From: Candidatus Magasanikiibacteriota bacterium
GTDB lineage: Bacteria > Patescibacteriota > Patescibacteriia > Magasanikbacterales > UBA922
DNA length: 64,000 bases
NCBI GenBank assembly: GCA_049287025.1
Contig: JBAQFA010000051.1
Span: forward strand, 65,697 to 129,696
Direction: 5' to 3'
Part shown: positions 4,091-48,758 of the stretch, piece by piece
Position numbering within the stretch: position 1 is the first letter of the stretch
How the letters are laid out: each line of letters begins with the position of its first letter
Notes under the pieces: generated by a model
The model's database searches: none
What the model was told of the DNA's origin: nothing
The model's input: only the letters and a program-made list of their open reading frames with translations
Made by a program: the position numbers and the translations under genes

Positions 4091-4549
4091 ATGTTCCAAA
4101 AACCATCTCCAGAAATCGCTCTTAATAAAGACAGACAAATGAATTCTTCTCATGACGATGTCGAAACTGTCGTTGGTCCATCAGTGGTGGTTGAGGGTGA
4201 TTTTGCTTCTGAAGGTAACATTATAGTAAAGGGGACAGTCTCTGGTTCAGTCAAAACTAGTCGCTTATTAACAGTAGAAAAAGGCGCAAAAATTTTGGCC
4301 AGTGTCAAAGCTGGGAGCGCAATTGTGGCAGGGAGTATTAGAGGTAATGTAAAAGTGGATGATAAATTAGATTTATTGGAGACATCACAGATTGCTGGTG
4401 ATATTATTTGTCAGGTTTTAACTGTGGCGCCAGGAGCTTTGTTACAAGGAAAAGTAACTATGAAAGGTTTGGATATTATAAAAACTGAAGACGAAACTAA
4501 TAAATTATTTGGTAAATTTAAAAAAGTAGAGGATACAGAAAAGAAATAG
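4091..4549 (+). CDS. Bactofilin family cytoskeletal protein
   Basis: 152 aa. Beta-helical repeat pattern 'VVVEGDFASEGNIIVKGTVSGSVK...VAGSIRGNVKVDDKLDL...IAGDIICQVLTVAPGALLQGKV', typical of DUF583/bactofilin. Confidence 0.65.
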   Translation: MFQKPSPEIALNKDRQMNSSHDDVETVVGPSVVVEGDFASEGNIIVKGTVSGSVKTSRLLTVEKGAKILASVKAGSAIVAGSIRGNVKVDDKLDLLETSQIAGDIICQVLTVAPGALLQGKVTMKGLDIIKTEDETNKLFGKFKKVEDTEKK

Positions 4550-4583
4550 CTTGTTTTTTTAAAACTGATAAAAGTGATGCATT

Positions 4584-5348
4584 ATGTACGTATATCTCTA
4601 CGATAATTTTTTAAAGCAAAAGAAGTTTGATTCAATCTTAAAGGCAATAGAAACTAGATTGACAGATTTTAGTATAGCTGGTAAAATAATCCGGCTGCAA
4701 AATTTTACCAATGCCCAGGCAGTGGTAGAGGACGAAATCAATCGAGGGGCCACGACCATTGTAATTGTGGGTAATGATATAACATTTGGTCATGTTTTAT
4801 CGCGGGCAGCTACCTGCGATATTTTATTTGGTTTTTTACCAGTTGGTACAGAGAACAATTCCATTGCGCAAGTGTTGGGTATTCCAATTGGAGTAGAAGC
4901 CTGTGATATTTTGTCAAAAAGGCGCAAAGTTAGATTGGATGTGGGCTGGTTCAATAATCGTTATTTTGTTTCTCAATTGCATATACCAGTCAGTGATATT
5001 ACAGTAGAATACGATGAAAAGTTTAGAGTGTCGGCCAAAAATAAAATGGAGTTGGTAGTATGCAATCTACAGCCATATGTTTGGAAGGGTAGAGGTAAGA
5101 TTAATGATTATATTGTTCATCCCCAAGATGGTAAATTAGAAGCTTTTTTGCGTCCGGTCTCTGGTCGGGGAATAATTAGAGAAAAATTTGAAGAACCAAG
5201 TTTGTTTCCGTTTGAGGAAATGATTGTGAGCAGTCGTAAGCCGTTTGTCGTAGAGGCTGATGGCAAAGAATCAAAAGAAATAAAAATTAAAATTAAATTA
5301 GCTAAAAGTAGGATTGGGATGATAGTGGGAAGGGAGCGGAAATTCTAA
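4584..5348 (+). CDS. Diacylglycerol kinase catalytic-domain (DAGK_cat/YegS-like) lipid kinase
   Basis: 254 aa. 'ATTIVIVGNDITFGHVL' matches the GGDGT-type nucleotide-binding loop of the DAGK_cat family. N-terminal 'YVYLYDNF' resembles the family start. Confidence 0.55.
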   Translation: MYVYLYDNFLKQKKFDSILKAIETRLTDFSIAGKIIRLQNFTNAQAVVEDEINRGATTIVIVGNDITFGHVLSRAATCDILFGFLPVGTENNSIAQVLGIPIGVEACDILSKRRKVRLDVGWFNNRYFVSQLHIPVSDITVEYDEKFRVSAKNKMELVVCNLQPYVWKGRGKINDYIVHPQDGKLEAFLRPVSGRGIIREKFEEPSLFPFEEMIVSSRKPFVVEADGKESKEIKIKIKLAKSRIGMIVGRERKF

Positions 5349-5458
5349 ACAATATCCAAAATACATGGAACAAAATACACACAATAAAATACATAACATA
5401 AATTACGTGGATTAATAAAATTGTATGTTGTTGCGTGTATATTGTATGTTGTTTTTAA

Positions 5459-5540
5459 GCCCAGGTGGCGAAATTGGTAGACGCACTACCTTGAGGTGGT
5501 AACGCCGTAAGGCATGGAGGTTCGAGTCCTCTCCTGGGCA
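5459..5540 (+). tRNA. tRNA-Leu (anticodon GAG), type II with long variable arm
   Basis: Acceptor GCCCAGG/CCTGGGC. Anticodon loop TTGAGGT. Variable arm GCCGTAAGGC. T-arm GGAGG-TTCGAGT-CCTCT. Discriminator A. CCA is not encoded. Confidence 0.85.
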
Positions 5541-5543
5541 CAA

Positions 5544-5567
5544 GTCTTGACAAACAAGACTTTTTTT
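5544..5567 (+). terminator. Rho-independent terminator after tRNA-Leu
   Basis: gtcttg-acaaa-caagac hairpin followed by T7. Confidence 0.6.
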
Positions 5568-5575
5568 GTTATAAT
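5547..5575 (+). promoter_or_regulatory. Sigma70-type promoter for rnpB, embedded in the tRNA-Leu terminator
   Basis: TTGACA at 5547-5552, 17-nt spacer, TATAAT at 5570-5575. The RNase P RNA P1 helix begins about 8 nt downstream. Confidence 0.5.
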
Positions 5576-5582
5576 TTTTTAG

Positions 5583-5999
5583 TTCATTACATAGTAGATG
5601 ATCAATCTTCGACTTTATGTTGGAGGTAGGAAAGTCCGAACATTCACCCGATGTAAATTGGGTAATAGAGTAGCGGGTAACTCCCGTCGGTCGCGAGACT
5701 AGAGGTGCGAGCAGTGACGCCGAGACGCGAAAGTGTCGAGGCACCACGTAAAAGCGTAAGCTTTTCACGTGGTGAACTCTGATAGTGATATCAGAGGTGA
5801 AACGGCAAAATCCTTACTTGAATGAAAGAACAGCCTTTCGATTCACTTCGTTCGCTTAGAGCAGACTAATTATTGGATGCTTTGGGCGAATGAAGTGCAA
5901 TTTGATTGGACAAGTTAGTTCGCTTGACCCAGCTGGTAACAGCCTGGGCAGATAAATGATCGTCCTAGACAAAATTCGGCTTATAGCTATGTAATGAAC
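5583..5999 (+). ncRNA. rnpB: RNase P RNA (bacterial type A)
   Basis: 13-bp P1 helix: gttcattacatag at 5583-5595 pairs with ctatgtaatgaac at 5987-5999. Conserved 'GGAGGTAGGAAAGTCCGAACA' (P4 5' strand) and 'ACAAAATTCGGCTTATAG' (P4 3' strand, cf. ACAGAAcCCGGCTTA). Locally GC-rich with no ORF. Confidence 0.85.
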
Positions 6000-6045
6000 A
6001 ATAAGAAATTCCCTAAAAATGGGGATTTTTTATTTATAGTCTAAG

Positions 6046-6074
6046 TTGACTAAAGTGTAAATTTTAGCTAAAAT
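6046..6074 (+). promoter_or_regulatory. Candidate sigma70 promoter upstream of the sugar transferase gene
   Basis: TTGACT, 17-nt spacer, TAAAAT. Confidence 0.4.
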
Positions 6075-6086
6075 ACAGAGTAATAG

Positions 6087-6135
6087 GATTTATTCCTTAT
6101 TCCCTGCCTGCGCAGGCAGGTTTATTCCTTACTCC
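6087..6135. repeat. 18-bp perfect palindrome cctgcctgcgcaggcagg flanked by direct repeats tttattccttaYtcc (family B palindromic element, intergenic copy)
   Basis: Perfect palindrome at 6103-6120. Flanking 14-15-bp direct repeats at 6087-6101 and 6121-6135. Related copies lie inside CDSs at 6694, 16525 and 18300. Confidence 0.5.
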
Positions 6136-6142
6136 TTTTTTT

Positions 6143-7579
6143 ATGAAACGTTCAGAAGTAATTTTAATGGTTTTACAAGTGCCAATTGATTTTGTGTTAC
6201 TTGTTTTGGCTGGTATCTCGGCTTATTATTTGCGTTTTTCCGAATGGGCAATACAATTGCGCCCGGTAATTTTTAGATTAACTCTGAATGACTTTTTTGA
6301 AGTAGCATTTTTGGTCTCTATAATTTGGATAGTTATTTTTGCGATTTTTGGTTTGTATTCAGCTGATCAGAATAGAAAATTATCTCGGGATTTGCTACGA
6401 GTTTTATTAGCTTCTTCAGTTGGTTTGGGAATCATTGCTTTGTACGTTATGTTTGCTCTGCAACAATTTGATTCTCGCTTTTTGGTAGCAGGTGGTTTTA
6501 TCTTGGCAGTTATTTATGTTAGTCTGGGTAGAATTTTGATGCGTGGGGTTAAGTCGCTTTTGTATAGAATGGGAATTGGTTTGCGTCGCGTAGTTATAAT
6601 TGGTACCGAAGAAGTGACGAAAAGTATTGTTAATACTTTGCAAAATAGAAAAGAACTTGGATATAAAGTTGTAAAAGTTTTAGAAAAGTTTAACCTGTCT
6701 GCGCAGGCAGGTAAAAATTTAATTCCCAAATTAGACAAATTAAAATTGAATGAAATAATTTTTACTAATCCCAAAGCTGATGAAAAAGAAACTTTAGGAG
6801 CTTTAAATTATTGCAATCAACGTCATATTGTTTTTAAATATTCCGCTGATTTATTTGCTACTTATAGCGCCAATATGTCTGTGACGGCTTTGGCTGGTGT
6901 GCCAATTGTAGAATTAAAACGCACAACTTTGGATGGTTGGGGTAGGGTAATAAAAAGAATTTTTGACATTATAATGAGCGTCGTAGTTATAATTATCACT
7001 TCGCCCATAATGCTTTTAACGACTTTTGTAATTTTAATAGAAACTGGTCGGCCAATAATTTATAAAAATGAAAGAGTCGGAATTAGAGGAAAGAATTTTT
7101 TTACTTTAAAATTTAGGTCAATGTTTCAAAAAGATTCCACTGGAATGCAATTTGGTGAGGTGGGGTTAAAAAATGAACAAAAGGAAAAGGAATTAATTAA
7201 AACAAATAGTATAAAATCTGGTCCAGTTTACAAAATTGCCAATGATCCTAGGGTGACACCATTTGGAAGATTTATTCGTCGTTGGAGCTGGGATGAATTA
7301 CCGCAATTTTTTAATGTTCTTGGTGGCAGTATGAGTATTGTTGGTCCGCGTCCTCATCAACCACGAGAGGTAAAGCAATACGAAGATGAATATAGTACAG
7401 TTTTTACTTTAAAACCTGGAATTACTGGTTTGGCGCAGATCTCTGGTCGGAGTGATTTGTCTTTTGATGATGAAATGAAGTTGGACGTATTTTATATAGA
7501 AAAATGGAGTTTGTTTTTGGACATTATTATATTTTTAAAAACACCGTTTGTAATTTTTAAAAAACGTAAGGCTTTATGA
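6143..7579 (+). CDS. Polyprenyl-phosphate sugar phosphotransferase (bacterial sugar transferase, WbaP/WcaJ/EpsL family)
   Basis: 478 aa. N-terminal TM helices. C-terminal catalytic domain with 'KRIFDIIMS', 'YKNERVGIRGKNFFTLKFRSM', 'DELPQFFNVLGGSMSIVGPRP', 'KPGITGLAQISGR'. Confidence 0.85.
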   Translation: MKRSEVILMVLQVPIDFVLLVLAGISAYYLRFSEWAIQLRPVIFRLTLNDFFEVAFLVSIIWIVIFAIFGLYSADQNRKLSRDLLRVLLASSVGLGIIALYVMFALQQFDSRFLVAGGFILAVIYVSLGRILMRGVKSLLYRMGIGLRRVVIIGTEEVTKSIVNTLQNRKELGYKVVKVLEKFNLSAQAGKNLIPKLDKLKLNEIIFTNPKADEKETLGALNYCNQRHIVFKYSADLFATYSANMSVTALAGVPIVELKRTTLDGWGRVIKRIFDIIMSVVVIIITSPIMLLTTFVILIETGRPIIYKNERVGIRGKNFFTLKFRSMFQKDSTGMQFGEVGLKNEQKEKELIKTNSIKSGPVYKIANDPRVTPFGRFIRRWSWDELPQFFNVLGGSMSIVGPRPHQPREVKQYEDEYSTVFTLKPGITGLAQISGRSDLSFDDEMKLDVFYIEKWSLFLDIIIFLKTPFVIFKKRKAL

Positions 7580-8742: not shown

Positions 8743-9987
8743 ATGAATGTAGGTATTGATATTCGTTGTCTCATGGATAAAAACAGAACCGGTGTTGGGG
8801 AATATACTTTTGGTTTGTTGGATAATTTATTTAAAGGCATTGATTCCACAAATTTTAAAAAAGATTACACTGATAATAAGAATCAGTTTTTTTTATTTTA
8901 TAATTCTAGTAAAGATATTTTAGCTAATTTGCCAAAATGGGGTTATGAAAATGTACATTATATTGGATTAAATTGGCCGAACAAATTGCTTAATTTGCTT
9001 TTGTGGTTGAGGTTGATTAGGTTGGATAAAATGGTGGCCAAAGTATTGAAAGATCAAAAGATCAACCTTCGTCCCGAGCTCAGGTCGAGGGAAAGATCAA
9101 AAGATCAAATTAACAATGTAACAATTCGACAATGTAACAATCTTAATATTTGGTTTTCTCCAAATCTAAACTTTACCAATTTATCCAAGGGAGTCAAGCA
9201 TATCCAAACCATTCATGATTTATCTTTTGAATTTTTTCCAGAATGTTTTACTTGGAAACAAAGATTATGGCATTGGTTTCTCAATCCAAAAAAACAGTGT
9301 AAACGAGCGGACATTATTTTAACACCATCGGAGAATACGAGACGGGACGTTGTCGACAGATATCATATATCAGATAACAAAATACAAGTATTGAGACCAG
9401 GACTGTCTGTAGACAGAGGACATAAGACAGAAGACATAAGACATAAATATGGTTTACCAGAGAAATATATTTTGTATTTAGGGACGTTAGAGCCACGCAA
9501 GAATGTTGAAAGCATAGTAGATGCCTATAAATTATATCGGTCACAGATCACTGATCACTACCCACTTGTCCTCGCTGGTGCTCTAGGTTGGAAAAATAAA
9601 AAATTAATGCAGTTAATCAAAAACACTCCCAACGTCAAATACAGTGGTTATGTGGATGGTGAGGATAAAATGGTATTATATAAAAATGCCAGTTTATTTG
9701 TTTTTCCAAGTTTATATGAGGGTTTTGGTTTGCCTGTTTTGGAAGCAATGTCCTGTGGCGTGCCTGTAATTACTTCTAATCGCTCATCGCTTACAGAAGT
9801 TGGTCAGGATGCAGTTTACTATGTTAATCCTAACAATGTTAATGAATTGGCGGGGGCAATGGAATTGATCATGAAAAATAATGAGTTAAGAACGCGGATG
9901 ATAGCCAGAGGTTTAGAAGTTGGCAAAGATTTTGATTGGCAAAAATCAGCTCAAGAACTACTAAGTGTAATAAATAATGTAAGTTGA
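8743..9987 (+). CDS. Glycosyltransferase family 4, carrying in-frame repeat insertions
   Basis: 414 aa. 'YLGTLEPRKN', 'VFPSLYEGFGLPVLEAMSCGVPVITSN'. Contains the family-A palindromic element (9049-9142) and a palindrome plus gacataa repeats at 9403-9447. Confidence 0.8.
   Translation: MNVGIDIRCLMDKNRTGVGEYTFGLLDNLFKGIDSTNFKKDYTDNKNQFFLFYNSSKDILANLPKWGYENVHYIGLNWPNKLLNLLLWLRLIRLDKMVAKVLKDQKINLRPELRSRERSKDQINNVTIRQCNNLNIWFSPNLNFTNLSKGVKHIQTIHDLSFEFFPECFTWKQRLWHWFLNPKKQCKRADIILTPSENTRRDVVDRYHISDNKIQVLRPGLSVDRGHKTEDIRHKYGLPEKYILYLGTLEPRKNVESIVDAYKLYRSQITDHYPLVLAGALGWKNKKLMQLIKNTPNVKYSGYVDGEDKMVLYKNASLFVFPSLYEGFGLPVLEAMSCGVPVITSNRSSLTEVGQDAVYYVNPNNVNELAGAMELIMKNNELRTRMIARGLEVGKDFDWQKSAQELLSVINNVS
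9049..9142. repeat. Family A palindromic element inserted in frame in the GT4 gene
   Basis: aaagatcaaaagatcaa-[cgtcccgagctcaggtcgagg]-aaagatcaaaagatcaa, then acaatgtaacaat x2. Encodes 'KDQKINLRPELRSRERSKDQINNVTIRQCNNLN'. Confidence 0.5.
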
Positions 9988-10114
9988 CGTTATAATAGAT
10001 ATAAATAACAGTTTAACATATATTATGTTAACATTAACACTGATAAGTCTGGTATATATTGGTAAAAAATGGCTAAAACTAGCTAAGTTTAAGAAAGTTA
10101 TTAACCTGTGAAGG

Positions 10115-10143
10115 TTGACTAATGTTGATTTTTGGGGTATAAT
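10115..10143 (+). promoter_or_regulatory. Sigma70 consensus-like promoter upstream of the large secreted protein gene
   Basis: TTGACT at 10115-10120, 17-nt spacer, TATAAT at 10138-10143. Confidence 0.5.
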
Positions 10144-10187
10144 CCGCTATTCTTAATTTAATCTTAATAATTTTTAATTAATAATCT

Positions 10188-13100
10188 ATGCGAAAAATCA
10201 TCATAGGAGTAGCCGTTTTTGCTCTAGCAATCATGGCTCTACCAAATACAGCCAGCGCTGGTGGCTGTTATTATCCAAGGACAGCTAGTGAAATTATTGC
10301 TAGTAGTCCAACTAAAATAAATTTTGAAAAAACTTATGCTTTGCCTTTGACAGGCTATTGGAGTGATAATGGTGTGATGTTTTCTTCGGACAATGGAAAA
10401 GCTATATATATTAATAGTTATAATCGTGGTGGTTCCACAACAGCTTCTGGTGAATATTCTCTGTCTAATAATGCTACTTGGCCAAAAACTAGTGCAAATG
10501 ATCCATTAAAAATAAATTTTAAAAATGCAGTAAATAAAGTTGGTTTGTATTTAGGTAATGGCGAAGGTAGCGAACCTGTTGTGGCCGTGGTATCTTTATT
10601 TAATAAGTCTGGAGAAAAATTGTGTGATATTGATGTAGATGTTAAGTCAGATAATGTAGATACATTTTTAGGTTTTGAAACTGTAGCTGATTTGTATTCA
10701 ATGACAATTGATTATGGTAATACTACTCTAAGTGAAGAAATAGATGATTTGATGTTTACTTATAGTTCTAAATATGATCCAATTTGTTCAGAAACAGATG
10801 ATGGAGAAGATTATTATGTAAAAGGTGAAACTACTGGTCACTGGCTTTGTGTTGAAGACGGATATCCAATAGTCACGGAAAAAGATGTTTGTGTAGATGC
10901 GAACACTGTAAGAGAATATATGTGTAATAGTGGATGTAATAATATTTTAGCAACCGACGTAAAATGTCCTAACGGTTGTGTAAATGGAGCTTGTGTATCT
11001 CCTAGCGATATTGTGGTGCCAACCTTATCCAATTTTGTAGCTTATGACACAATTAGTGGAATAGGTTTGGTAGAAAATAAAGTTGGCTACAAAAAATATG
11101 GTAGTTATTCAAAACCATTACCAGTTTCAATTTACAATTCAACTAAAGCAATTAAATTATCTTTGATGCTTAAAAATAGCAATGATAATTTTACTTATGC
11201 TTATGTCTGGAATAATAATCCTTCAGATGGTGTAGAAGCTGATTACAGTGAGCAGACTGTGAAATCTATGGCTGGGTCAGCCAATTTTAATTCTTCGGCT
11301 GTGACAACTTTGAATTTAACTGACTATTATCGTGGTAAGTATGTGATGGTGCATGCGTTTGTGAGAAATAATGATGGTAAATCCGAAGTGCCAAATATGT
11401 CAGTAGAAGTAGATGAAGTCGTGCCATTATATTTTAGAATTGAGAAATTAAAAACGCCAACAGTAAATAGTTGTGTAGATTCTGATAATGGTTTAGAAAT
11501 TTATACCAAAGGTAGTACCAAAGGAGAAAAAGAAGGTACTAGAGTTTATGGGATTTATAATGATTCTTGCAGTAATAAAGTTGGTGAATCTGGTTTGTAT
11601 AGTGGTAAATGGGTAGTGGAACAACATTGTAGTGGCCCAGTTGACAAACCATATGTACATACTCAATGGAATGATTGTCCAAATGGCTGTATGGATGGCA
11701 AATGTGCTGAAAAGACTGTTTATGATAATACCATAAAGCCTACGGTAGCTTATCCAACAAACAAACAAGTTCTAACAAATTATCCAAGAGTAGCAACCCT
11801 AAAATGGAATTCAATTAGTGAAGCAGTTTCTTATAATATAGAATTGACATGTGATCATTGTAATAGTGTCGCCTGGCAAGATTATTATAAATGGACTTCT
11901 AAATCTAATTATTATGTTACCACTCCTCTAGATGGTGACAATGAATTTAGATTTAAAGTAAAGGCTGTGTATGCAGATGGTAGTACCAGTCAATGGTCTG
12001 ATTATAGATATTTTAGTTATAATACGTCAGCGTATTCTGAGAGTGTCTGTAGTGACCCAGATGGTAATAATACTAATGTAAAAGGTTATTCTAATGGTCT
12101 AAATAAAGTGACTAACAAACCGATGAATTATGTTGATTCTTGTGTGGTAAGTGACACTAACACGGTTTATGCTTATAGTAGTAATTATGTTAATGAATGG
12201 GTGTGTACCGCAGGAAATATTGTAGATAGTAGAGTTAGCAAGTGTAAAAATGGTTGTGTTGATGGACTTTGTGTTGAAGACAGCGAAGTTAATTATGATA
12301 TATCTGGTACAAGAGTAGTATTTTATATTTCTCTGAACCAGACCATGAAGCATAAAGAAAGCGGAGTAAATATAAAGTTGAATTATTTTGATGATAAAAG
12401 AATTTTGGTAAATTTGGATGGTGGTGCATATTTTGATGAGACAGTTTTGAGTTTAAAGACAAAGACCCAATTTTCCTTGATAAATGACAGTGTAAATAAA
12501 ATTGCCTTTACCTATTTAGGTAAGACAGCTGATGGTAAACAGGCAAAAATTTTACTTGATTATGGTGCAGATACCAATTTGAATGAATATGGTGCAGATT
12601 GTAATTTGAAAGTATATACAAAGGGTGACCAAACTGGTGGTGATGGAGTCTATCGTTTGTATGGTAGTGACAAACTTTATCATAGTGTATCTGGTATTAC
12701 TATGTCAGCTGACCCACTTGAAAAAAGTGCTAAGATTTATTTAGCGCTAAAGGGTGCTAAAGTATCTAATGTATTGATTAGTGCGAGTAGCATGAAATCT
12801 TTTACTTCAGCTAATGAAAAATATAATTTGACAGTTACATATAATGGATCTGATCCTTGTGGTGGTAGTATTATCACAGTAAAAAGTGAAAAGATTAGCA
12901 ATGAGGATTCTTGTTATAATTTATCTGGTATGGGAAACTTAGCTAAAGCTTGGGGTGATAATAAGGTCTGGTATGTGGAAGGTAATAATAAATATTGGTT
13001 TTCTTCAGCCGATGTTTATTTGTCCTGGTTTAGTGATTTCTCTGGTATCAAACTTACTGATGATAGTACAATTAATTCATTGACTCAGGGTGATAATGTT

Positions 13101-13640
13101 TGTCTAAAAACCGTATCAACTTGCTACAATCTTTCTGGTAAAGGTTATTTGGCCAAATCTTGGAATGATAACAAAGTTTGGTATGTTGATAATTCTACCA
13201 AGTATTGGTTTGCTAGTGAAAGTATTTTTAAATCTTGGTTTAAAGATTTTTCTGGAATCAAACTTATCAATGATAGTGTAATGAATTCTTTTGCTCAGGG
13301 TTCTGGTGTGTGTTATAAAGGTAGTATTACTATTCCAGTGGTAGAGAAACCTATCGTATCTTCAGGTGTGTCTTGTGGTAATTCGGCCGGTGGCGATGGT
13401 TTATATAGTATGTGTAAAGGTGATTCTATCCGCCATAGTGATGGGTTTACTATTACCAATCAAGCTTACACTGATAAAGTTTTGTCTTTAAAAACTGATG
13501 GTTTGGTAGCAACTTATATGCGTTTACCTATGAATGTCCCAGTCGTCATACAAGATATTACAGGAAAGAATAAGTATGATGTCACTTATACGCAAAAAAC
13601 AGATAAACACGGTGCATTCTTACAGATTGACAGTAAATAA
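10188..13640 (+). CDS. Large secreted cysteine-rich surface protein (signal peptide; CxNGCxxGxC modules; FN3-like domain; two C-terminal ~75-aa repeats)
   Basis: 1150 aa. Signal peptide 'MRKIIIGVAVFALAIMALPNTASA'. Repeated 'CPNGCVNGACV', 'CPNGCMDGKC' and 'CKNGCVDGLCV' modules. C-terminal duplicated repeat 'CYNLSG.G.LAK.W.DNKVWYV...KYWF...FSGIKL'. Confidence 0.7.
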   Translation: MRKIIIGVAVFALAIMALPNTASAGGCYYPRTASEIIASSPTKINFEKTYALPLTGYWSDNGVMFSSDNGKAIYINSYNRGGSTTASGEYSLSNNATWPKTSANDPLKINFKNAVNKVGLYLGNGEGSEPVVAVVSLFNKSGEKLCDIDVDVKSDNVDTFLGFETVADLYSMTIDYGNTTLSEEIDDLMFTYSSKYDPICSETDDGEDYYVKGETTGHWLCVEDGYPIVTEKDVCVDANTVREYMCNSGCNNILATDVKCPNGCVNGACVSPSDIVVPTLSNFVAYDTISGIGLVENKVGYKKYGSYSKPLPVSIYNSTKAIKLSLMLKNSNDNFTYAYVWNNNPSDGVEADYSEQTVKSMAGSANFNSSAVTTLNLTDYYRGKYVMVHAFVRNNDGKSEVPNMSVEVDEVVPLYFRIEKLKTPTVNSCVDSDNGLEIYTKGSTKGEKEGTRVYGIYNDSCSNKVGESGLYSGKWVVEQHCSGPVDKPYVHTQWNDCPNGCMDGKCAEKTVYDNTIKPTVAYPTNKQVLTNYPRVATLKWNSISEAVSYNIELTCDHCNSVAWQDYYKWTSKSNYYVTTPLDGDNEFRFKVKAVYADGSTSQWSDYRYFSYNTSAYSESVCSDPDGNNTNVKGYSNGLNKVTNKPMNYVDSCVVSDTNTVYAYSSNYVNEWVCTAGNIVDSRVSKCKNGCVDGLCVEDSEVNYDISGTRVVFYISLNQTMKHKESGVNIKLNYFDDKRILVNLDGGAYFDETVLSLKTKTQFSLINDSVNKIAFTYLGKTADGKQAKILLDYGADTNLNEYGADCNLKVYTKGDQTGGDGVYRLYGSDKLYHSVSGITMSADPLEKSAKIYLALKGAKVSNVLISASSMKSFTSANEKYNLTVTYNGSDPCGGSIITVKSEKISNEDSCYNLSGMGNLAKAWGDNKVWYVEGNNKYWFSSADVYLSWFSDFSGIKLTDDSTINSLTQGDNVCLKTVSTCYNLSGKGYLAKSWNDNKVWYVDNSTKYWFASESIFKSWFKDFSGIKLINDSVMNSFAQGSGVCYKGSITIPVVEKPIVSSGVSCGNSAGGDGLYSMCKGDSIRHSDGFTITNQAYTDKVLSLKTDGLVATYMRLPMNVPVVIQDITGKNKYDVTYTQKTDKHGAFLQIDSK

Positions 13641-13656
13641 GATTTGAAGTTAAATA

Positions 13657-13684
13657 AAACCCCACTTGAAAGAGTGGGGTTTGT
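13657..13684. terminator. Bidirectional terminator between convergent genes
   Basis: aaaccccac-ttgaaaga-gtggggttt hairpin with A/T runs on both sides. Confidence 0.6.
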
Positions 13685-13692
13685 TTATGAAA

Positions 13693-13980
13693 TTATTTTT
13701 CCAGTTCAGCTAGTTTTTTTTCCAATTCATCAAAAGTTAAATTTCCAGCCCTGTATGATTCAAAAAGTGTTAATTCTTTTTTTATCAGCTCAGAGTCAAC
13801 TGGTTGGTTGTCTCTTTCTTGACCGTATATGGCTTCGGCAGCGGCAACGTTTTCTTCTGTAATTCTTTGTATTTCTTCATCAGTGCGCTGTGGTTCACCA
13901 GTCATTTCATCTTTTAGTTCCAGAGCTTCTTTAAGCTCTGGGTATTTGGCGAGTAAAGCCTCCAATTTTTGATTGTCCAT
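13693..13980 (-). CDS. Small acidic coiled-coil hypothetical protein
   Basis: 95 aa. Last gene of a tightly spaced minus-strand operon. No recognisable domain. Confidence 0.5.
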   Translation of the reverse strand: MDNQKLEALLAKYPELKEALELKDEMTGEPQRTDEEIQRITEENVAAAEAIYGQERDNQPVDSELIKKELTLFESYRAGNLTFDELEKKLAELEK

Positions 13981-13994
13981 AATTTTTAAATTAA

Positions 13995-15434
13995 TTAATT
14001 AGTAAAATAATTCATTTGTTTTAATTTTTCAACAGTTTTTATTGTTATTTTTTCAATTACTTCTGGTGTTAAGTCTTTAAATTGCGTTGCTAATTCTTTT
14101 GCAGATTCAGCAATAACTTTGGTAATTTGGCTTGTATAACTTTCGCCATTTTTACTTTCTTTTTTTCTTGTGTCGTCAACAAAAGACACTCCTTTACCAA
14201 TTTTATCAGTAAAAAATGAAGTTTTTTTTCGTACTGCATCCTGTGGTATTTGTGAAATTATTGTTTTAATTGCTTGTAGCCATTGATCGGATTCTGTTTT
14301 TTGTTCTGTTGTCTCTGCTTTCGGTATATATAAATATGCGACACAAGTATCAGTTCTTTCATATGCAGCAAAATCTTTTCTAAACTTGAATTTTAAGCGA
14401 ATTCCGTTTTGATCTAAATAATCAGAAAGTTTACTGAGACATTCTGCAACTTTAGTAGTGCCATCTGGGCTGGCGTTAATATAGAATCGTACCTCTCGTG
14501 CATTATCCTTGTATGGAGCATTACCTTTAAACCAAACGAATCCCGCTGCTTGGTCTGGCTGTTGACCGTCGATAAGTTCTTGTTCGGTAATGTGTCTAAC
14601 TTTAGAAGATTGTGTTACTATATCAATTAATCTGTTACTAATTTCGGTATCGAAGTTTGCAATGAAATTTTCTTTGTCTGGGACATTAATCTCATCTTTT
14701 ACCTCTTGGTCAGTCATACCAGATTTATGTATATATTCATACATTACTACCGGCATTTTTGCTAGCATCTCAACATCACTTAAAGACTGTCGTTTTTTAA
14801 ATTCATCATCTGTTTCCCCAATATTTTTTCTGTTTCTAAATCTATCCATCTTCCCTCGAAAGTCTTTATCATTGAGAACAAGTTGTAGAAAATTTTTAAT
14901 TTGTTCTTCAAACAGTTGTTCTCTTTCAGATTTTATTTTTGTTTCAAGCTTATTGGTTGTTGTTTTTGGTAAAGGTTGTTTTTCTTTCTGCCTGAGATAA
15001 TCTAAAATTTTCTGTCGCAGTTTAACTTGTTCTGGGTCTGTGGTTCCCCAGAGTTCTTGTACAATTTCAGAAGACAGCCCTCGATACTTGGTTGGGATGT
15101 CTTGTTCTGTTATTGGTGGTTCGATACTCTCAGGCTTTGACATTGGCTGTTTTTCCTTGCCTCTTAGATACTCCAAAATTTTTTGACGTTTTTCAATCTC
15201 GTCTGGATGTGAAGTCTGCCAGATCTCTTCAAGTATTTCTGCAGAAATGCCACGATATTGAGGTGGTATATCTTCTTCGGTTGTTGGTTGTTCAGTGTCT
15301 TCTTCCAATTCAAAAAGCGTCTCAGTTGCTAATTTTTCTTGAGCTTTTGTTTGACCAGAAGTTGAACGAGGCTGTTTTTCGGTTGGGTGTAATTCTGGGT
15401 TTATGATTTGTTCTATTTCTTCATCTCTGTCCAT
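13995..15434 (-). CDS. Hypothetical protein with a tandem ~50-aa acidic N-terminal repeat
   Basis: 479 aa. The repeat 'EEDIPPQYRGISAEILEEIWQTSHPDEIEKRQKILEYLRGKEKQP' is followed by a near-identical copy 'EQDIPTKYRGLSSEIVQELWGTTDPEQVKLRQKILDYLRQKEKQP'. No recognisable domain. Confidence 0.6.
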   Translation of the reverse strand: MDRDEEIEQIINPELHPTEKQPRSTSGQTKAQEKLATETLFELEEDTEQPTTEEDIPPQYRGISAEILEEIWQTSHPDEIEKRQKILEYLRGKEKQPMSKPESIEPPITEQDIPTKYRGLSSEIVQELWGTTDPEQVKLRQKILDYLRQKEKQPLPKTTTNKLETKIKSEREQLFEEQIKNFLQLVLNDKDFRGKMDRFRNRKNIGETDDEFKKRQSLSDVEMLAKMPVVMYEYIHKSGMTDQEVKDEINVPDKENFIANFDTEISNRLIDIVTQSSKVRHITEQELIDGQQPDQAAGFVWFKGNAPYKDNAREVRFYINASPDGTTKVAECLSKLSDYLDQNGIRLKFKFRKDFAAYERTDTCVAYLYIPKAETTEQKTESDQWLQAIKTIISQIPQDAVRKKTSFFTDKIGKGVSFVDDTRKKESKNGESYTSQITKVIAESAKELATQFKDLTPEVIEKITIKTVEKLKQMNYFTN

Positions 15435-15436
15435 AG

Positions 15437-16282
15437 TTAGTTTAATTCCTTTATTTTTTTGATTAATTCAGAAACAGGCAAACTATCTCCAAATGGTTTG
15501 TATAGCATTCCCTTAAATTTTTTTAATCCAAACTTTGAAAAAGTTTCTAAAATATTTAGATTAAACTCTTTTAAAGCTAAAAATACTTTTTTTAAATCTT
15601 GATCATAAAAATTTTCTTCCAGTCTGTAAAAGGCTGCTAATAATTGGTGACGTATTTCTGGGTTAAAGATTTTATAACACAGTTCTTTGCGGAAAGTATT
15701 CTCTAGAGGATAATATGCTGGTAGATTGCCAGCTTTGGTTTGTAATCCCGTTGTAAGTAATTTTTGTTTGTCGTTCTCATTTAAGTAAGTAAATTCATAG
15801 AGCACTTGTAATGTGTATTCTAAAACATAAAAAATACCTATTTTTTGAATAACATCTTTATCATTTTTTTCTTGTTCTTCTGGGGATAGTTTTTTTGTCC
15901 TGTCCGCTAATTTTTTCAATAAAACGTGATGTTCTATTACGGCTGTTTTGGTTTTTGTAAATATTTTGTTTATATCCCCTAATAATTCTTCAACTTGGGT
16001 GTTTGGTGCTGGGGTGTTTGAATAAATATCAATAACATTGCCGAGCGCTTGGATAAATTCAACCTCATTAATTTTTGTTTCCATTAGTATTATTTCTGTA
16101 TTTTTTATAGCTTTGTAAGCGTGAGTAGTGGTTAGGTTTTTATTTTCCAGAGCATTTTTTAGAGAAATTGTTGCTGATAGAATATTTTTTAGAATTATTT
16201 TTTGTTCTTCTGTACCCCAAAAGTTTAATGGTTTTGTGCCCAATTTTTGAATTGTTTCAAGAAGAGTGTAGAGTGGTGTCAT
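15437..16282 (-). CDS. Hypothetical alpha-helical protein
   Basis: 281 aa. Its stop lies 2 bp before the start of the downstream gene. No recognisable domain. Confidence 0.55.
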   Translation of the reverse strand: MTPLYTLLETIQKLGTKPLNFWGTEEQKIILKNILSATISLKNALENKNLTTTHAYKAIKNTEIILMETKINEVEFIQALGNVIDIYSNTPAPNTQVEELLGDINKIFTKTKTAVIEHHVLLKKLADRTKKLSPEEQEKNDKDVIQKIGIFYVLEYTLQVLYEFTYLNENDKQKLLTTGLQTKAGNLPAYYPLENTFRKELCYKIFNPEIRHQLLAAFYRLEENFYDQDLKKVFLALKEFNLNILETFSKFGLKKFKGMLYKPFGDSLPVSELIKKIKELN

Positions 16283-16364
16283 AAAGTTTTGTTTGTATGT
16301 TAAGTATAATATAATGGCTTAGATTAGTAAATAGTTGTTGGAGGGGTTGTTTTTTTGTTGATTT

Positions 16365-17585
16365 GTGATAAATTATAGCTATATGAAAATAGGTATTGAC
16401 GCTAGAATGATGGGTTCAAAACAAGCTGGTTTAGGACGTTATGTTGAACAGCTGGTTTTGGGTTTATTGGAACAGGACAAAGAGAATGAATATGTACTGT
16501 TTACAAACAACGGTAACACACCATGTCTGCCTGCGACGGCAGACACCCCACTCAAGAGGGGATTTAAAATTGTTGAAGCAAACATACCTTGGTACAGCTG
16601 GCAAGAACAGACAAAATTTAAAAAAATAATTGATAGGGAAAAAATTGATTTAATGCATTTTCCTCACTGGAATGTGCCGTTATTTTATAATAAGCCATTT
16701 GTCGTCACGGTGCATGATTTGATTATGTACCATTATCCTCGGCAAGAGGCGAGTACTCATGGGCCGTTTGTTTATTGGCTGAAAGATTTAGGACATCGCC
16801 TAGTACTTAATCACGCGGTACAAAAAGCCAAGCATATTATTGTGACGAGTGAATTTACCAAGCAGGATTTACATCAGACCTTGGGAGTTTCATTAGAAAA
16901 AATGACTGTGACTTACCAAGCACCGTTTCAAAACACGATTCATGATTCACATAACACGACACAAGTTTTAAAAAAAAATAATGTTGAAAAACCATACGTT
17001 TTGTATGTTGGGAATGCTTATCCTCATAAAAATTTGGAAGGATTGTTAAAGTCTTGGAAAATTTTTAATGAAAAATATGGCAATGAATACCAATTAGTTT
17101 TGGTTGGCAAAAAGAATTTTTTTTATGAAAGACTTTTGAAAGATCAAAAGATTGAAAGATCAAAAGATCAGGAAGAAAAATCAGGATTTTCCGATCTTCC
17201 GATCTTCCGATCTTCAATTATTTTTACTGATTACGTCACAGACAATGAACTATCCCAACTATACGTCAACGCTTCACTCTACGTCTTCCCTTCACTCTAC
17301 GAAGGTTTTGGTTTACCACCACTCGAAGCACAACAATATAATGTGCCAGTGGTTTCTTCCAGTGCTAGTTGTTTGCCAGAAATATTAGGCGAGTCGGCGT
17401 TGTATTTTGATCCAGAGAATTATGAACAAATGGCGGAGGTGATTTATACTGGTTTGACTAATGAAGATATGAGATTTGAATTAAGACAAAATGCGAGAGA
17501 AAACCTAAAACGTTTTAATTTAAATAATATGATTAGTCAGACGTTGTTGATTTATAATAATATTGTTAAATTATTACATTATTAA
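16365..17585 (+). CDS. Glycosyltransferase family 4, carrying in-frame repeat insertions
   Basis: 406 aa. 'VFPSLYEGFGLPPLEAQQYNVPVVSSSASCLPEIL'. Contains a family-B palindrome (16525-16544), a family-A element (17137-17216) and a 12-nt direct repeat (17273-17301). Confidence 0.8.
   Translation: MINYSYMKIGIDARMMGSKQAGLGRYVEQLVLGLLEQDKENEYVLFTNNGNTPCLPATADTPLKRGFKIVEANIPWYSWQEQTKFKKIIDREKIDLMHFPHWNVPLFYNKPFVVTVHDLIMYHYPRQEASTHGPFVYWLKDLGHRLVLNHAVQKAKHIIVTSEFTKQDLHQTLGVSLEKMTVTYQAPFQNTIHDSHNTTQVLKKNNVEKPYVLYVGNAYPHKNLEGLLKSWKIFNEKYGNEYQLVLVGKKNFFYERLLKDQKIERSKDQEEKSGFSDLPIFRSSIIFTDYVTDNELSQLYVNASLYVFPSLYEGFGLPPLEAQQYNVPVVSSSASCLPEILGESALYFDPENYEQMAEVIYTGLTNEDMRFELRQNARENLKRFNLNNMISQTLLIYNNIVKLLHY
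17137..17216. repeat. Family A palindromic element inserted in frame in the GT4 gene
   Basis: gaaagatcaaaagattgaaagatcaaaagatcagga ... tccgatcttccgatcttccgatcttc. Encodes 'LKDQKIERSKDQEEKSGFSDLPIFRSS'. Confidence 0.5.
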
Positions 17586-22375: not shown

Positions 22376-22765
22376 ATGAACCCAGAAAAAATAAAAGTTA
22401 TTTGGGATGACAAAGATAAGTTAGTCTATATAAAATTAGTAGGTGAGTTTGATCAAGACCATGCTGAACAAGCCGTTCAAAAATATCGAGAAGTTTTGGA
22501 TGAAATAGAAGAAAAAGATATTGTTTTGAATAAAGTTTTATATGATATTACTGAAGCTGGTGATGCTACGATTGGCGCCAGAAGAATTTTTGCTAGTTTT
22601 GCCAGAAGTATTACTCAGAGTTTTAAAAATTTAAAAGTTGCATATATAGATGGACCAAGGTTGGCTATGATTGTTAGTCGTTTTATCCATAGACTTACAA
22701 GTATTGGGGAAGTAAGATATTTTAAAACAGAAGAAGATGCGAGAGGATGGCTAAGAGGAGAATAA
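22376..22765 (+). CDS. Small hypothetical protein (STAS-like fold possible)
   Basis: 129 aa. Starts 5 bp after the upstream gene. No confident domain. Confidence 0.45.
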   Translation: MNPEKIKVIWDDKDKLVYIKLVGEFDQDHAEQAVQKYREVLDEIEEKDIVLNKVLYDITEAGDATIGARRIFASFARSITQSFKNLKVAYIDGPRLAMIVSRFIHRLTSIGEVRYFKTEEDARGWLRGE

Positions 22766-22809: not shown

Positions 22810-22884
22810 TGGTGCCCTCGGCAGGAGTCGAACCCACATTACCAGGTTCGAAGCCTGGTGTCCTATCCGTTGAACGACGAGGGC
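22810..22884 (-). tRNA. tRNA-Arg (anticodon TCG)
   Basis: Minus-strand sequence GCCCTCG...CGAGGGC-A-CCA. Anticodon stem CCAGG/CCTGG with loop CTTCGAA. T-loop TTCGACT. CCA is encoded. Confidence 0.85.
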
Positions 22885-22961
22885 AAAAAAACACGATACA
22901 AAATACACTTATCACTACACAAATAATATGTATCGTGTTATGTGTGTCATGTATCGTGTTT

Positions 22962-23037
22962 TGGTACGCCGCCTGGGGATTGAACCCAGGACCTTGGGCT
23001 TAAGAGGCCCCTGCTCTACCAACTGAGCTAGCGGCGC
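22962..23037 (-). tRNA. tRNA-Lys (anticodon CTT)
   Basis: Minus-strand sequence GCGCCGC-TA-GCTCAGTTGGTAGAGC-A-GGGGC-CTCTTAA-GCCCA-AGGTC-CTGGG-TTCAATC-CCCAG-GCGGCGT-A-CCA. Confidence 0.85.
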
Positions 23038-26109: not shown

Positions 26110-29100
26110 ATGTCTTTTAAAGAATTCAAAAATTTTTTTCAGAGTCCAAAAGGTATAAAAAGAGATGAAAGAATTACCGCATCGGTAAAAGGTTTTTTTG
26201 ATGATAGGAAACAAACAAAAGGAATGGTGGATGCTTATGAATTTGATCGCAAAGAAAAAGAGAGAAATGATGCCGAGGCTAGTAAAATGGTGACATCTAG
26301 AAGGTTTCAAAATAAAGGTGAAAATATTGATGAAGGTGAAAGTGAAGTTCACAGTGCCGTTGAATATCCTGGTAAGTGGGAGATGTTAAAAGATCGATTG
26401 GTTGGTGGTAACAGACAAGAGCCGGTGGCAGATTTTTTGGAAGCAGAAGCTAGGGCTGAAGCCAAGATACATAAGCGTAGAGTACAGGATTGGATTGAGG
26501 GTAGTGAAGATGGTTCAGTAAAAGGTATAAGACAAATAATTGAAGAACAAAATCTTGATATTGATTTGGAATTTGTTTTAGAAAAAATTAATCAAAAAGA
26601 AAAAGATTGGGGTACACATTACGAACAATTTATTAGAGATATATTTAGTATGGTGGCAGAAATGAAAGTAATGATTTATCAGGAAAATCTTGTCCGATGG
26701 ATGACTGATTTGGTTGAAACAGAAGGTTTTGATATTGAAGTTGATCTAGATGGTATTTTGGGTAAATTAAATCAAGCTATAAATAGATCGGGTGGCGACT
26801 TTTCTAAGGTAAATTCGGAATTACAAGAAACAGAAAGAGAAATCAAAATTGAAGTCAAAAGACAAATGCTTTCTGGTTGGTTGGACAAGTTTTTGGCACC
26901 ATCTGAACAGTGTAAAACCGAAAAAGATACAGCTGTCAATGGGGTGGAAGAGGATTTGAAAATTGAGTTAGAAAAAGTGGATGGATTATCAAAGGCAACA
27001 TCTGAAGTAAATAAATTAGTCCAAAAACAAGATGCTTTAGAACTACGTAAGAGAATTTTGTCAGAGGAAATGTTAAAATTAGAGAGATTGGAACAAGAAA
27101 GTGAAGTGGGTGCAGAGGTTGAAGGTGGCGAAGTTGAAGTAGTTGTTGAAGGTGGTGGTAGAAAAAAAGGGAAAAAAGGTAAGAAGGTCGAAACCGCTGG
27201 TAATGCAAGTACAATAGAAGAAAGAAAAGCTAGAGTTCAAAAAGCGATTGATGAATATGAAGATGAATTGAAATTGGCAAGAGCAGAATTGGCTTTGTCA
27301 AGAGAAAAATTAGCTACAATAACTACCCAAGCTGGGGGTTCAGCGGAAAAGGTTAGGGTGTTAAAAGAAAGAAAAAAACAATTACAAGGTGAACAAAAAA
27401 GTGCAGAAGATGAACTTAAAAAAGTTAAGGGAGTTATAGAAACATTTAGACAAGATATTAATACTCAGGCTAAGTCTTCTGGAAGTAATGAAAGCTCATT
27501 TAGATTGGAAATAGCTAGAATTAAACGTAAAGCTTCTAATGATTTGGATAAATTGGGTGGTATAAAAGATTTTCCTGATTTGGATAATATTCCAGAGATG
27601 CCAAAATTAGATCTGCCAGAATTGCCAGATGAGTTTTGTTATTTGCCAAGTGATGTCCAAAGTAAATTATCCAAAAAGAAACCAGTAGATGTAAAAAAAC
27701 CTTGGGAATTGACTGGTCCGATGGCACCAAGTGGAATATTTAGAGCAGCTAGTGGTGGTAAGATTTCTCCTTTTAGAAAGGAAAGAGGCGGAGAAACAGA
27801 AAAAAGTGATAAAGATAGATTGAGAGAAATCTTAGCCGGAAATAATTTGGAGAAAAAAATTCAAGCTTTAGTAAAATGGGCAGAAGAAAAAAATAGAAGA
27901 CAAGGACTAGGTGACGAAAGTGATGAATATAGCGCTTTGAGTTTATTATTACGCGCGGAAAGTTTTGTAAATGGTTTGTCGGATAATGATAAAAAAGTGG
28001 AATGGTTAAAAACCATAGGTACATGGATAAATATGCCAGAAAGGGATAAACAGAATTATGATGCTTTGTCAGATACTGATAGAGCCATAATAAATGATTT
28101 AGAAATTAATTATAATCCTCAAACTGGTAAACCAGAATTATTTAGAAAAGATGACCTGGATAGGCTTGAACAGCAAATAGAGAATGAAAGTGATCCGGAA
28201 AAGAAATTAATTCTTTTGTTAAAAAAAGCCCAATATGAAGCTATGGGCTTGTTAGAAGGTGATTTTAATAAAACTTTGGAATTGGTCAGTCAAGAATTAG
28301 AAAAAATAAAAGATAATTGTGCTAGATTTATTTCCCTAGCTTGTTTGGTGGCAGAAAGAAGAAATAATCTTGGTGCTGATGATGGAGAAACCAAACGTAT
28401 ATTAGGTACGGCTGTGGAAATGACGGAAAAAGTTGAAGACTTGACAGAAAGAGAAAAATTAATAAAAAAATTAATTAAATCATATGGCGCACTTGGTCCA
28501 AGAAAAGAAGCGATTGATCACTTGGTAGGTGATACTAGTGAACCAATTTCAGAACCTGTTGAAGAGTCTGTAGAGACAGAAGAGTTAGATGAAGACGCTC
28601 CAGTCGTTGATGAACAATCTACTAGAACAGAAGATTTTGTTGGTTTTGATTATGATGAAGTTTTTACTGATGATGAAGCAGCTAGTCAAGTAGATGAAGA
28701 TGTGGACTCACAAACTGTTCCAAATCAAGATAAATCAAAGGATGTTGCCAAATTGGCCTGGTTGAAAAACTTGGGTAAAAGACTAGTTCCATCATTTTTG
28801 AAAAGAAATCAAGAAAAAGTTGAACCAAATCAAACTGGACCAGACGTTCAAGAACCAGAACAAGAGAGTGAAAGTGATCAGGAATTCAACAAATTGTTAG
28901 AATCGATGGAAGGAGATCATGTTAATATTAAGCTAAAGTCGTTAGCTGAGTTTGTTCAAGATCAGGAAAGTAAGGGTACTTTTGGAAGTATTTCTGATAG
29001 AGTAAAAGATATGGTTGGAGGGTTGAGTCAGGAACTTAATAAACGAGGAGAAAGAAGTTCAGAAAATACAATGGGAGCATACATTGATTTGGCTAGAGTT

Positions 29101-48491: not shown

Positions 48492-48565
48492 GGACCCGTA
48501 GCTCAGTTGGTTAGAGCGCTACATTGACATTGTAGAGGTCAGAAGTTCAACTCTTCTCGGGTCTA
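48492..48565 (+). tRNA. tRNA-Val (anticodon GAC)
   Basis: GGACCCG-TA-GCTCAGTTGGTTAGAGC-G-CTACA-TTGACAT-TGTAG-AGGTC-AGAAG-TTCAACT-CTTCT-CGGGTCT-A. No CCA encoded. Confidence 0.85.
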
Positions 48566-48670
48566 CAGAGGATGCTCAGTTTCGGCCAAAGGCCGACCAG
48601 CCTCTGGCTGGGGTTAGAGCGTCCCGATTTTACATCGGGAAGGTCAGAAGTTCAACTCTTCTCGGGTCTA
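48566..48670 (+). other. Partial tRNA-Val duplicate lacking a 5' acceptor strand, with the anticodon arm replaced by hairpin tcccga-ttttaca-tcggga (UUA anticodon-like loop)
   Basis: 48613-48670 repeats GGTTAGAGCG ... AGGTCAGAAGTTCAACTCTTCTCGGGTCTA, the exact 30-nt 3' end of tRNA-Val. The preceding 48 nt contain the hairpins tcggcc-aaa-ggccga and agcc-tct-ggct. No sequence pairs with the 3' acceptor strand. Confidence 0.4.
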
Positions 48671-48758
48671 CTAGGGCTTTGCTTATACTATGCCCTATAA
48701 ATAGTTTACTACTTGAAAAAATTTTATAAGTGTAGTATACTCCTTTTACTTTTTATAA

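Follow-up and report, generated by a model that had tools for sequence, protein, structure and literature searches.

The window analyzed here is a 64,000-nt stretch of contig JBAQFA010000051.1 (positions 65,697 to 129,696) from a Candidatus Magasanikiibacteriota bacterium. It carries an operon of three genes, here named A, B and C, which on balance we regard as encoding a phospho-Ser/Thr lyase (B) plus two proteins tied to it by a common N-terminal tag, and not by a known pathway. Proteins identical to those of the operon were recorded from a Candidatus Magasanikiibacteriota metagenome-assembled genome. An earlier note on this DNA had described three tightly spaced open reading frames (ORFs) of 281, 479 and 95 aa, and the ORF listing was exactly as described. 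All three lie on the minus strand, with 2 nt between the stop of A and the start of B and 14 nt between B and C. The flanking glycan and envelope genes (Bac_transf, three GT4 glycosyltransferases, DUF4012 and DUF11) are located on the other strand, as the note had also stated of the glycan genes. The coordinates of all features are given in Table 1.

HopA1/LanY-type probable lyase domain of B

Residues 293-444 of B matched the Pfam family HopA1 (PF17914) with a score of 43.5 bits (E 4e-11), the cutoff of the family being 22.7. The earlier note had recognized no family for any of the three proteins, which held for A and C but not for B. HopA1 was the sole match of B in Pfam, NCBIfam and PADLOC, where no delivery or trafficking domain (LXG, Rhs, PAAR, TPS) was detected. 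The precomputed PF17914 label was present on 32 of the 35 B homologs, and a protein identical to B is named "T3SS effector HopA1 family protein" by NCBI. No genes of a type III secretion system (T3SS) were detected in the window scans, and we know of no T3SS in bacteria of the Candidate Phyla Radiation (CPR).

An AlphaFold model of B was built on 33 homologs. Residues 1-47 were disordered, with a pLDDT score (predicted local distance difference test) below 50 at residues 15-47, and were followed by two helical repeat units and then by the C-terminal domain (residues 166-479), in which pLDDT was 81-98 per 10-residue block and mostly above 93. When the model was compared with the PDB by Foldseek, the best structural match was LxmY, the lyase subunit of lexapeptide dehydratase (9dk1_B, E 1.7e-6, probability 1.0). 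HopA1 from Pseudomonas syringae was also matched (4rsw_A/4rsx, E ~1.5e-5, probability 1.0, target-normalised template modelling (TM) score about 0.5), at a sequence identity to B of 12-14%. In class III lanthipeptide synthetases (LanKC), the lyase domains displayed weak similarity (probability 0.85-0.97).

HopA1-like proteins termed LanY eliminate phosphate from phosphoserine (pSer) and phosphothreonine (pThr); the LanY protein CaoY requires R187 and K219, and its R229 and Y236 are conserved (PMC9486802). The CaoY sequence near these residues was translated from the mutagenic inserts in the supplement of that paper. R187, K219, R229 and Y236 of CaoY aligned ungapped with R316, K350, R360 and Y367 of B. 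The CaoY segment LRVYV paired with VRFYI of B (R187/R316), and K219, Y227-x-R229-x-D231 and Y236 paired with K350, Y358-x-R360-x-D362 and Y367, the spacing from K to R to Y being identical. The four positions were invariant or kept in 32 of 33 B-family members. The C-terminal domain of B is therefore a HopA1/LanY fold that keeps the beta-elimination residues of CaoY, and because these residues are conserved, B very probably has phospho-Ser/Thr lyase chemistry.

The first helix of the lyase domain (residues 176-202, 14829-14909) showed a sub-threshold likeness to leaders of the Nif11 type (TIGR03798 E 0.0023; Pfam Nif11 E 0.08).

B shares features with three known groups. It is like the LanY proteins (CaoY, LxmY, ThoD/TvaD) in its fold, for which LxmY was the best match, and in all four residues important in CaoY. 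However, LanY is an obligate heterodimer with a nearby-encoded kinase of the APH family (PF01636) and acts on a leader-bearing precursor peptide (PMC9486802), while no APH kinase, no Ser/Thr/Cys-rich precursor and no tailoring or export genes were found beside B. Neither an APH nor a protein kinase was present among the 33 window proteins scanned, and among the annotated or scanned neighbours of the B homologs no kinase was found either. Genes for peptides that are ribosomally synthesized and then post-translationally modified (RiPPs) were likewise not found beside the B homologs examined. The second group, the phosphothreonine lyases OspF and SpvC, would share the proposed chemistry with B (beta-elimination of phosphate from pThr or pSer). 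B differs from them in giving no sequence match to this family in Pfam or the PDB, only the weak fold similarity to LanKC lyase domains being seen; the LanY branch does not have the Lys104/His106 pair of OspF (PMC9486802).

The third group is HopA1 (PF17914; 4RSW/4RSX), a type III effector. B is like HopA1 in passing the Pfam cutoff and in its fold. It is likewise stand-alone, with no adjacent kinase and with a non-catalytic N-terminal region, and its gene lies directly after that of a possible partner. The hopA1 gene is encoded after the gene of its chaperone ShcA. In contrast to the HopA1/ShcA pair, A was not detectably similar to a solved structure, whether of a chaperone or of another protein, and unlike HopA1, B displays a CPR-specific tag and IPxQY repeats at its N-terminus. 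Within the family, B is like the stand-alone branch of effector type. It adds a new architecture to a known family of enzymes, being kinase-independent, found in the CPR, and provided with a tag and repeats before the lyase domain.

Gene A and the linkage of the three genes

A total of 62 homologs of A were detected in Magasanik-, Uhr-, Peregrini- and Parcubacteria, with identities of 37-86%. A profile search of 1.84 billion proteins gave 135 representatives, almost all of them stand-alone proteins of 265-290 aa. The AlphaFold model of A was mostly helical (pLDDT 93.7) and had no fold match among PDB and viral structures (best E 0.25, TM <= 0.25), and A matched no family in Pfam, NCBIfam, PADLOC or PHROG. 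The isoelectric points (pI) within the family spanned 4.7 to 9.3. The A family is thus a small, CPR-restricted family of stand-alone, mostly helical proteins of about 280 aa.

Sequence links of A or B to solved structures (TbpB, FliS, haemoglobin, a designed repeat protein) were all spurious. The FliS profile match was non-significant (E 0.54), and the match of A/B to the designed repeat protein was a score summed over weak repeat matches. The possibility that A is the missing LanK kinase was rejected, as A is helical, has no PDB match and is linked with B in one lineage only.

In the linkage survey, 16 distinct A loci and 15 B loci were compared. Close behind most A genes lay a same-strand gene of varying length that had no Pfam family. 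A conserved three-gene system could be rejected: 14 other A loci had no B, 13 other B loci had no A, and C was an orphan. The earlier note had named synteny of the trio in related genomes as a check and had held that its idea would fail if the proteins fell into housekeeping families with no conserved linkage. Half of the latter was seen, since the linkage of A and B was not conserved outside two related genomes, while that of A with a tagged neighbour, described below, was conserved.

The B homologs were surrounded by varied housekeeping genes, and in two loci by serine recombinases and an Xre-type regulator. In this clade (L024/L035) they adjoin large serine recombinase genes (L024 3-1586 and 4100-5683; L035 2016-3752); the assignment was confirmed by Pfam for L024 4100-5683, and the others are its BLAST homologs. 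A 68-aa protein, by eye an Xre-type helix-turn-helix protein, precedes the B homolog (L024 2026-2229; L035 4369-4572). The lyase gene of this clade may be carried on a mobile element. In another clade the B homolog has directly upstream of it the gene of a conserved protein, helical and about 115 aa long (L001 986-1360, L004 5456-5983, L028 3790-4140, L034 293-643). It is a lineage-specific alternative partner of B homologs and is unrelated to A. Among the other B homologs no conserved small downstream gene was found.

N-terminal tag of the proteins encoded next to A

Alignment of the N-termini of the proteins encoded 3' of A revealed a common acidic motif of 17 aa near residue 30, with the approximate consensus AQ(K/Q)E(G/Q)EAAxxLxx(L/M)ExE. 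Both B and C carry this tag. With position-specific scoring matrices (PSSMs) from which one group at a time was left out, the proteins downstream of A ranked 0-4 of 223 background proteins in eight of the nine groups, and the position of the motif was constant near residue 30. The tag of B, with its own group left out, scored 13.4, a value reached by one of the 223 background proteins and by 3 of 1000 shuffles. When the composition of the N-terminus was shuffled, p was <= 0.012 in six of nine groups and 0.14 in L011. Three hold-out loci (L036, L037, L038) gave tag scores of 10-11, the distant L038 scoring 10.9, and composition shuffles gave p values of 0.03-0.04 for L036 and L037.

A scan of 49 window genes with a PSSM from which the lineage had been excluded placed C first (17.2) and B second (14.7), followed by a third score of 8.5, against a background of -4.3 +/- 6. 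Among 35 B-family proteins scanned, the tag occurred only in the two members adjacent to A (13.4 and 15.0), all others scoring <= 7.8. In paired neighbours of 18 A loci the median score was 9.8 downstream and -4.3 upstream (Wilcoxon p = 4e-4). The tag was also present on second downstream genes (L005, L009) and on the convergent 1012-aa neighbour in L012, which has methyltransferase and radical-SAM family matches. Receiver-domain or other Pfam identities for the neighbours of A homologs were otherwise rejected: no Pfam match at E <= 0.01 was obtained for any of the eight same-strand proteins 3' of A homologs that were scanned, nor for that of L010. From the five tag tests, together with the tagged second downstream and convergent neighbours, we therefore conclude that the relationship conserved across CPR lineages is that of A with a tag carried by its neighbours, irrespective of the C-terminal domain that they have; exceptions and orthology, discussed below, keep this below certainty.

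Two consecutive genes after an Uhrbacteria A homolog (L005 6093-6968 and 7072-8076) have their first 39 residues in common, the tag included, at 62% identity. Their C-terminal domains are unrelated, and one of them displays by eye a GxGxG motif like that of S-adenosylmethionine-dependent methyltransferases. This pair is a second example of the tag on a swappable domain.

In L007, L018 and L037 (about 4500-7100), A and its tagged neighbour lie in a housekeeping setting that is conserved, RuvX-A-x-RecO, downstream of SecY-Adk-Map. In L039 (4229-7021), A comes after RecO, with an overlap of 4 nt with the start of an untagged NNMT/PNMT-like methyltransferase gene.

The third-best score of the window scan came from residues 31-47 of a 129-aa SpoIIAA-like (STAS) protein (22376-22765, plus strand) and is probably due to chance. 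It is the sole SpoIIAA-like protein, holds the one domain of partner-switch type near the locus, and is encoded separately from the operon. The partner-switch system that the earlier note had offered as a candidate function found no footing, since A, B and C contain no STAS, anti-sigma-kinase or phosphatase (PP2C) domain.

Repeats between the tag and the lyase domain

Between the two repeat units of B, identity was 58% at the protein level and 67% at the DNA level, and their alignment scored 182, whereas shuffles scored 30 +/- 6. The tandem repeat described in the earlier note is thus real, although not perfect. Its core, (I/V)PxQY(R/K)G(L/M)(P/S)SE(V/I)VEE(M/L)W, was found once, close to the N-terminus, in each of at least 11 further B homologs. 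Judged from this occurrence, the IPxQY module is an element of the B family that is duplicated in this B. Around the conserved Ser of IPxQY(R)G(L)(P/S)SE, the sequence has the form RxxS / SxxE, which resembles consensus sites of kinases. Speculatively, this Ser could be a phospho-acceptor that docks in the lyase site as a pseudo-substrate.

Comparison with the closest relative

The window was compared by blastn with locus L002 of the relative, Magasanikbacteria GW2011_GWC2_37_14, and protein identities were calculated. A and the 5' third of B lie between the same glycosyltransferase genes in both genomes, and the DNA at 14982-17130 is 82.5% identical, the best-conserved stretch of the locus. 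DNA similarity ends within repeat unit 2, at about window position 14982 (B residue ~151). The protein identities changed in the same way, being 86% for A and 79% for residues 1-150 of B (the tag and both repeats), against 27% for the lyase domain of B and 25% for C. A variable cassette of about 5 kb beyond the breakpoint shared no DNA similarity with the 1.2 kb that takes its place in the relative, where the 1150-aa gene of the cassette is missing. The divergent lyase domain of the relative nevertheless keeps W301, G304, R316, D338, K350-F-R352, Y369 and an R-x-D...Y block. Exchange of a C-terminal domain together with its immunity gene is a pattern known from polymorphic toxins, and the present pattern, seen in one genome pair, looks like the replacement of such an effector/immunity cassette.

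The earlier note had taken the operon for an inserted module and had proposed a search for flanking repeats marking the insertion. Insertion as a mobile module was rejected: no repeats flank the operon, its GC content is ordinary, and the conserved part of the locus is syntenic in the relative.

C has a pI of 4.4 and contains no Cys. A search of 5.8 billion clusters returned C itself as the sole match, and the ORF of the relative that gave the 25% identity above is 64 aa long and occupies the corresponding position. Since C was exchanged together with the lyase domain, while A and the tag and repeats were kept, C may be a cognate, immunity-like inhibitor of the lyase of B, a weaker suggestion than those made for A and B; the joint exchange is the only evidence for it. 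The immunity-like role proposed in the earlier note may thus apply to C; B belongs to a known lyase family.

Proposed function and alternatives

From what is known of its family, B would convert pSer or pThr of a protein or peptide into dehydroalanine or dehydrobutyrine, an irreversible dephosphorylation. As the neighbourhood encodes no partner kinase, the substrates of B are most likely phosphorylated by some other kinase, and B most likely does not act as half of a RiPP dehydratase. By analogy, action on the substrates of another kinase has been proposed for the stand-alone effector HopA1. We infer that A physically binds the tag, the site being probably near a helix with the invariant residues D141, Y152, E155, Y156 and Q159; A would serve as an adaptor, chaperone or docking hub through which its clients B and C are recruited, stabilised or handed over. 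Such a role would be alike in logic to that of class I chaperones of the T3SS, of Eag/DUF1795 adaptors of type VI secretion systems, and of FliS with flagellin, where a conserved protein beside variable clients recognises a short disordered terminus, but A has no sequence or fold relationship to these proteins. The operon is best read as a module centred on A, with two tagged clients, of which one is a probable lyase; its catalytic domain is exchangeable, and so is its small partner downstream. The target might be phosphoproteins of the cell itself or of another cell. More weakly, B may act as an effector on another cell, and we lean slightly toward an effector-like role.

HopA1-family lyases are known in two settings, as effectors of plant pathogens and as RiPP dehydratases always paired with a kinase. 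A kinase-less clade in the ultra-small CPR bacteria suggests that Ser/Thr phosphate is irreversibly removed in episymbiont biology, on host proteins or on their own. The B proteins of CPR bacteria are compact enzymes, and assays of them could settle whether HopA1-type proteins that stand alone are lyases. Most CPR proteins have no known function, and A with its tag on variable neighbours offers a concrete, testable handle on which clients it has and what it does with them.

Several observations weigh against the proposed function. A and B adjoin only here and in Magasanikbacteria GW2011_GWC2_37_14 (L002/L003/L008). Two same-strand downstream genes are untagged, namely those of L016 (PilT-like by eye) and L039 (the NNMT-like methyltransferase); L023 scored low owing to a 2-aa insertion, and L011 was marginal. 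Since several A loci are orthologous (RuvX-A-x-RecO), the common N-terminus perhaps goes back in part to common descent from a single neighbour gene that evolves fast. A match of charge between A and the acidic tag is unsupported, because the A family is not uniformly basic. The role of C depends on one pairwise comparison, and C has no homologs. Finally, HopA1 itself has no proven biochemical activity, lyase activity having been demonstrated for LanY members only (PMC9486802).

A broader reading, which we put forward tentatively, is that proteins of the A family act as receptors for an N-terminal tag that is portable and found on diverse CPR clients, in an undescribed system of client recruitment or export targeting. 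In this operon the client would be the phospho-lyase, and at other loci methyltransferase-like, repeat and small acidic proteins. B would then be a kinase-independent lyase effector whose domain is exchanged as a cassette with its inhibitor C.

An effector-immunity cassette is a specific biological reading of the function proposed above, and in this strict form we regard it as doubtful. B would be an exported polymorphic effector against the phospho-signalling of a host or competitor, C its immunity protein, and A an export chaperone or adaptor that reads the tag. The locus is like the polymorphic toxin/immunity cassettes of contact-dependent growth inhibition (CDI), Rhs and LXG systems in that the N-terminus is kept, the C-terminal domain and the small ORF are replaced, and the breakpoint in the DNA is sharp. 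Both versions of the lyase domain keep the catalytic residues, HopA1 as a secreted effector is a precedent within the family, the N-terminus of B is disordered, T4SS_pilin-domain proteins are encoded in the same window, and the B homologs of L024/L035 adjoin serine recombinases. However, the analysis found neither a recognised secretion signal or toxin-delivery domain nor a complete secretion system. In contrast to polymorphic toxins, B has no known delivery domain and both alternative C-terminal domains are of one fold family, in a pattern that comes from a single genome pair. A small downstream gene is not conserved among the other B homologs, the other clients of A are methyltransferase-like or small acidic proteins within housekeeping neighbourhoods, and PADLOC and PHROG gave no matches. 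An origin of the operon in anti-phage defence or from a phage was rejected, as PADLOC, PHROG and viral contigs gave no matches.

It is unlikely that the three genes are accidental neighbours without a functional unit, the tag being the composition of an acidic, Ala/Glu-rich disordered N-terminus or a remnant of one orthologous neighbour gene. The adjacency of A and B in two related genomes only would agree with this, as would a motif that is short and of low complexity, shuffle p values of only 0.03-0.14 for L011, L036 and L037, the lack of the motif in L016 and L039, and the orphan C, which could be a spurious or very young ORF. Yet the position of the motif is constant, and the top two of 49 window genes are exactly the two genes after A. 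The motif is missing from all 33 B homologs that do not adjoin A, and the paired control of upstream and downstream neighbours was significant (p = 4e-4). It also occurs on unrelated C-terminal domains, including the two consecutive L005 paralogs and the convergent neighbour in L012, and the genes of the operon are spaced as if translationally coupled.

Very unlikely is a RiPP dehydratase, with B as the LanY-like half of an enzyme of the class V lanthipeptide/thioamitide type, C possibly as precursor, and the kinase elsewhere or A itself: it would account for LxmY as best structural match, for the catalytic residues common to B and CaoY, for the below-cutoff Nif11-leader-like match in B and for a Peptidase_C39-like protein at 43610-44464, but it is weak because no kinase was found and because C is Cys-free, very acidic and without homologs. 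The defining co-occurrence of PF17914 with an APH kinase was not found in the window or in the B loci examined, A is helical, unlike LxmK, APH or eukaryotic-type protein kinase folds in the PDB, and decoupled from B in its distribution, and no cyclase, decarboxylase or transporter genes are adjacent.

Table 1. Features of the operon and of the adjoining variable cassette (positions in the window; residue numbers refer to the protein named).
Feature	Position	Strand	Basis or remark
Gene A, 281 aa	15437-16282	-	ORF listing
Gene B, 479 aa: N-terminal tag, two IPxQY repeat units, HopA1/LanY-type lyase domain	13995-15434	-	
Tag in B, residues 30-46, KAQEKLATETLFELEED	15297-15347	-	Predicted-disordered segment
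Repeat unit 1 of B, residues 48-100, motif IPPQYRGISAEILEEIW	15135-15293	-	pLDDT about 90
Repeat unit 2 of B, residues 105-157	14964-15122	-	Self-alignment
Probable phospho-Ser/Thr lyase domain of B (HopA1/LanY fold), residues 166-479	13998-14939	-	Pfam, Foldseek, residue conservation
Candidate catalytic residues of B	R316 14487-14489; K350 14385-14387; R360 14355-14357; Y367 14334-14336	-	
Gene C, 95 aa, acidic orphan	13693-13980	-	ORF listing
Tag in C, residues 41-57, TEENVAAAEAIYGQERD	13810-13860	-	
Intrinsic terminator hairpin, 10-bp stem and T-run, 3' of C, closing the operon	13657-13682	-	
Promoter-like site TTTACT-17-TATACT, 5' of A	16303-16331	-	Consensus match only
Variable cassette: lyase domain of B, C, terminator, gene of 1150-aa secreted Cys-rich protein	9946-14981	.	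blastn

Genomic setting and other observations

The promoter-like sites of the region were not more numerous than in shuffles, so the site 5' of A gives weak support for a promoter. The terminator hairpin lies 17 nt from the stop of the convergent 1150-aa gene. The earlier note had described it as shared with this large secreted protein; a hairpin is indeed present near the convergent stop, but its T-run qualified as that of a terminator only in the minus-strand orientation. The 1150-aa gene (10188-13640, plus strand) encodes a Cys-rich protein with a hydrophobic, signal-like N-terminal segment by eye and internal repeats (DNA families D1, D3 and D7), and matched no Pfam family.

Several very large proteins are encoded elsewhere in the window, all on the plus strand. 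A 706-aa protein with T4SS_pilin and Big_5 domains (51900-54020) comes before a giant ORF, which exceeds 3,325 aa, extends from 54025 to beyond 64000 and has an N-terminus that is pilin-like by eye (a hydrophobic hairpin). The giant ORF is absent from the ORF list because it is open past the end of the window. These two genes suggest a large surface or pilus-associated apparatus. Two adjacent genes at 26110-29451 (1113 aa) and 29465-33619 (1384 aa) had no Pfam family at E <= 0.001.

No rRNA was found in the 64-kb window. An RNase P RNA of class A (5586-5999, plus strand) was detected with 103 bits, barely over the cutoff, and five tRNA genes were located at 5459-5540, 22813-23037 and 48492-48833. 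A perfect 16-nt tandem duplication (TTGAAAGATCAAAAGA x2; 17136-17167, plus strand) lies within the glycosyltransferase gene at 16365-17585.

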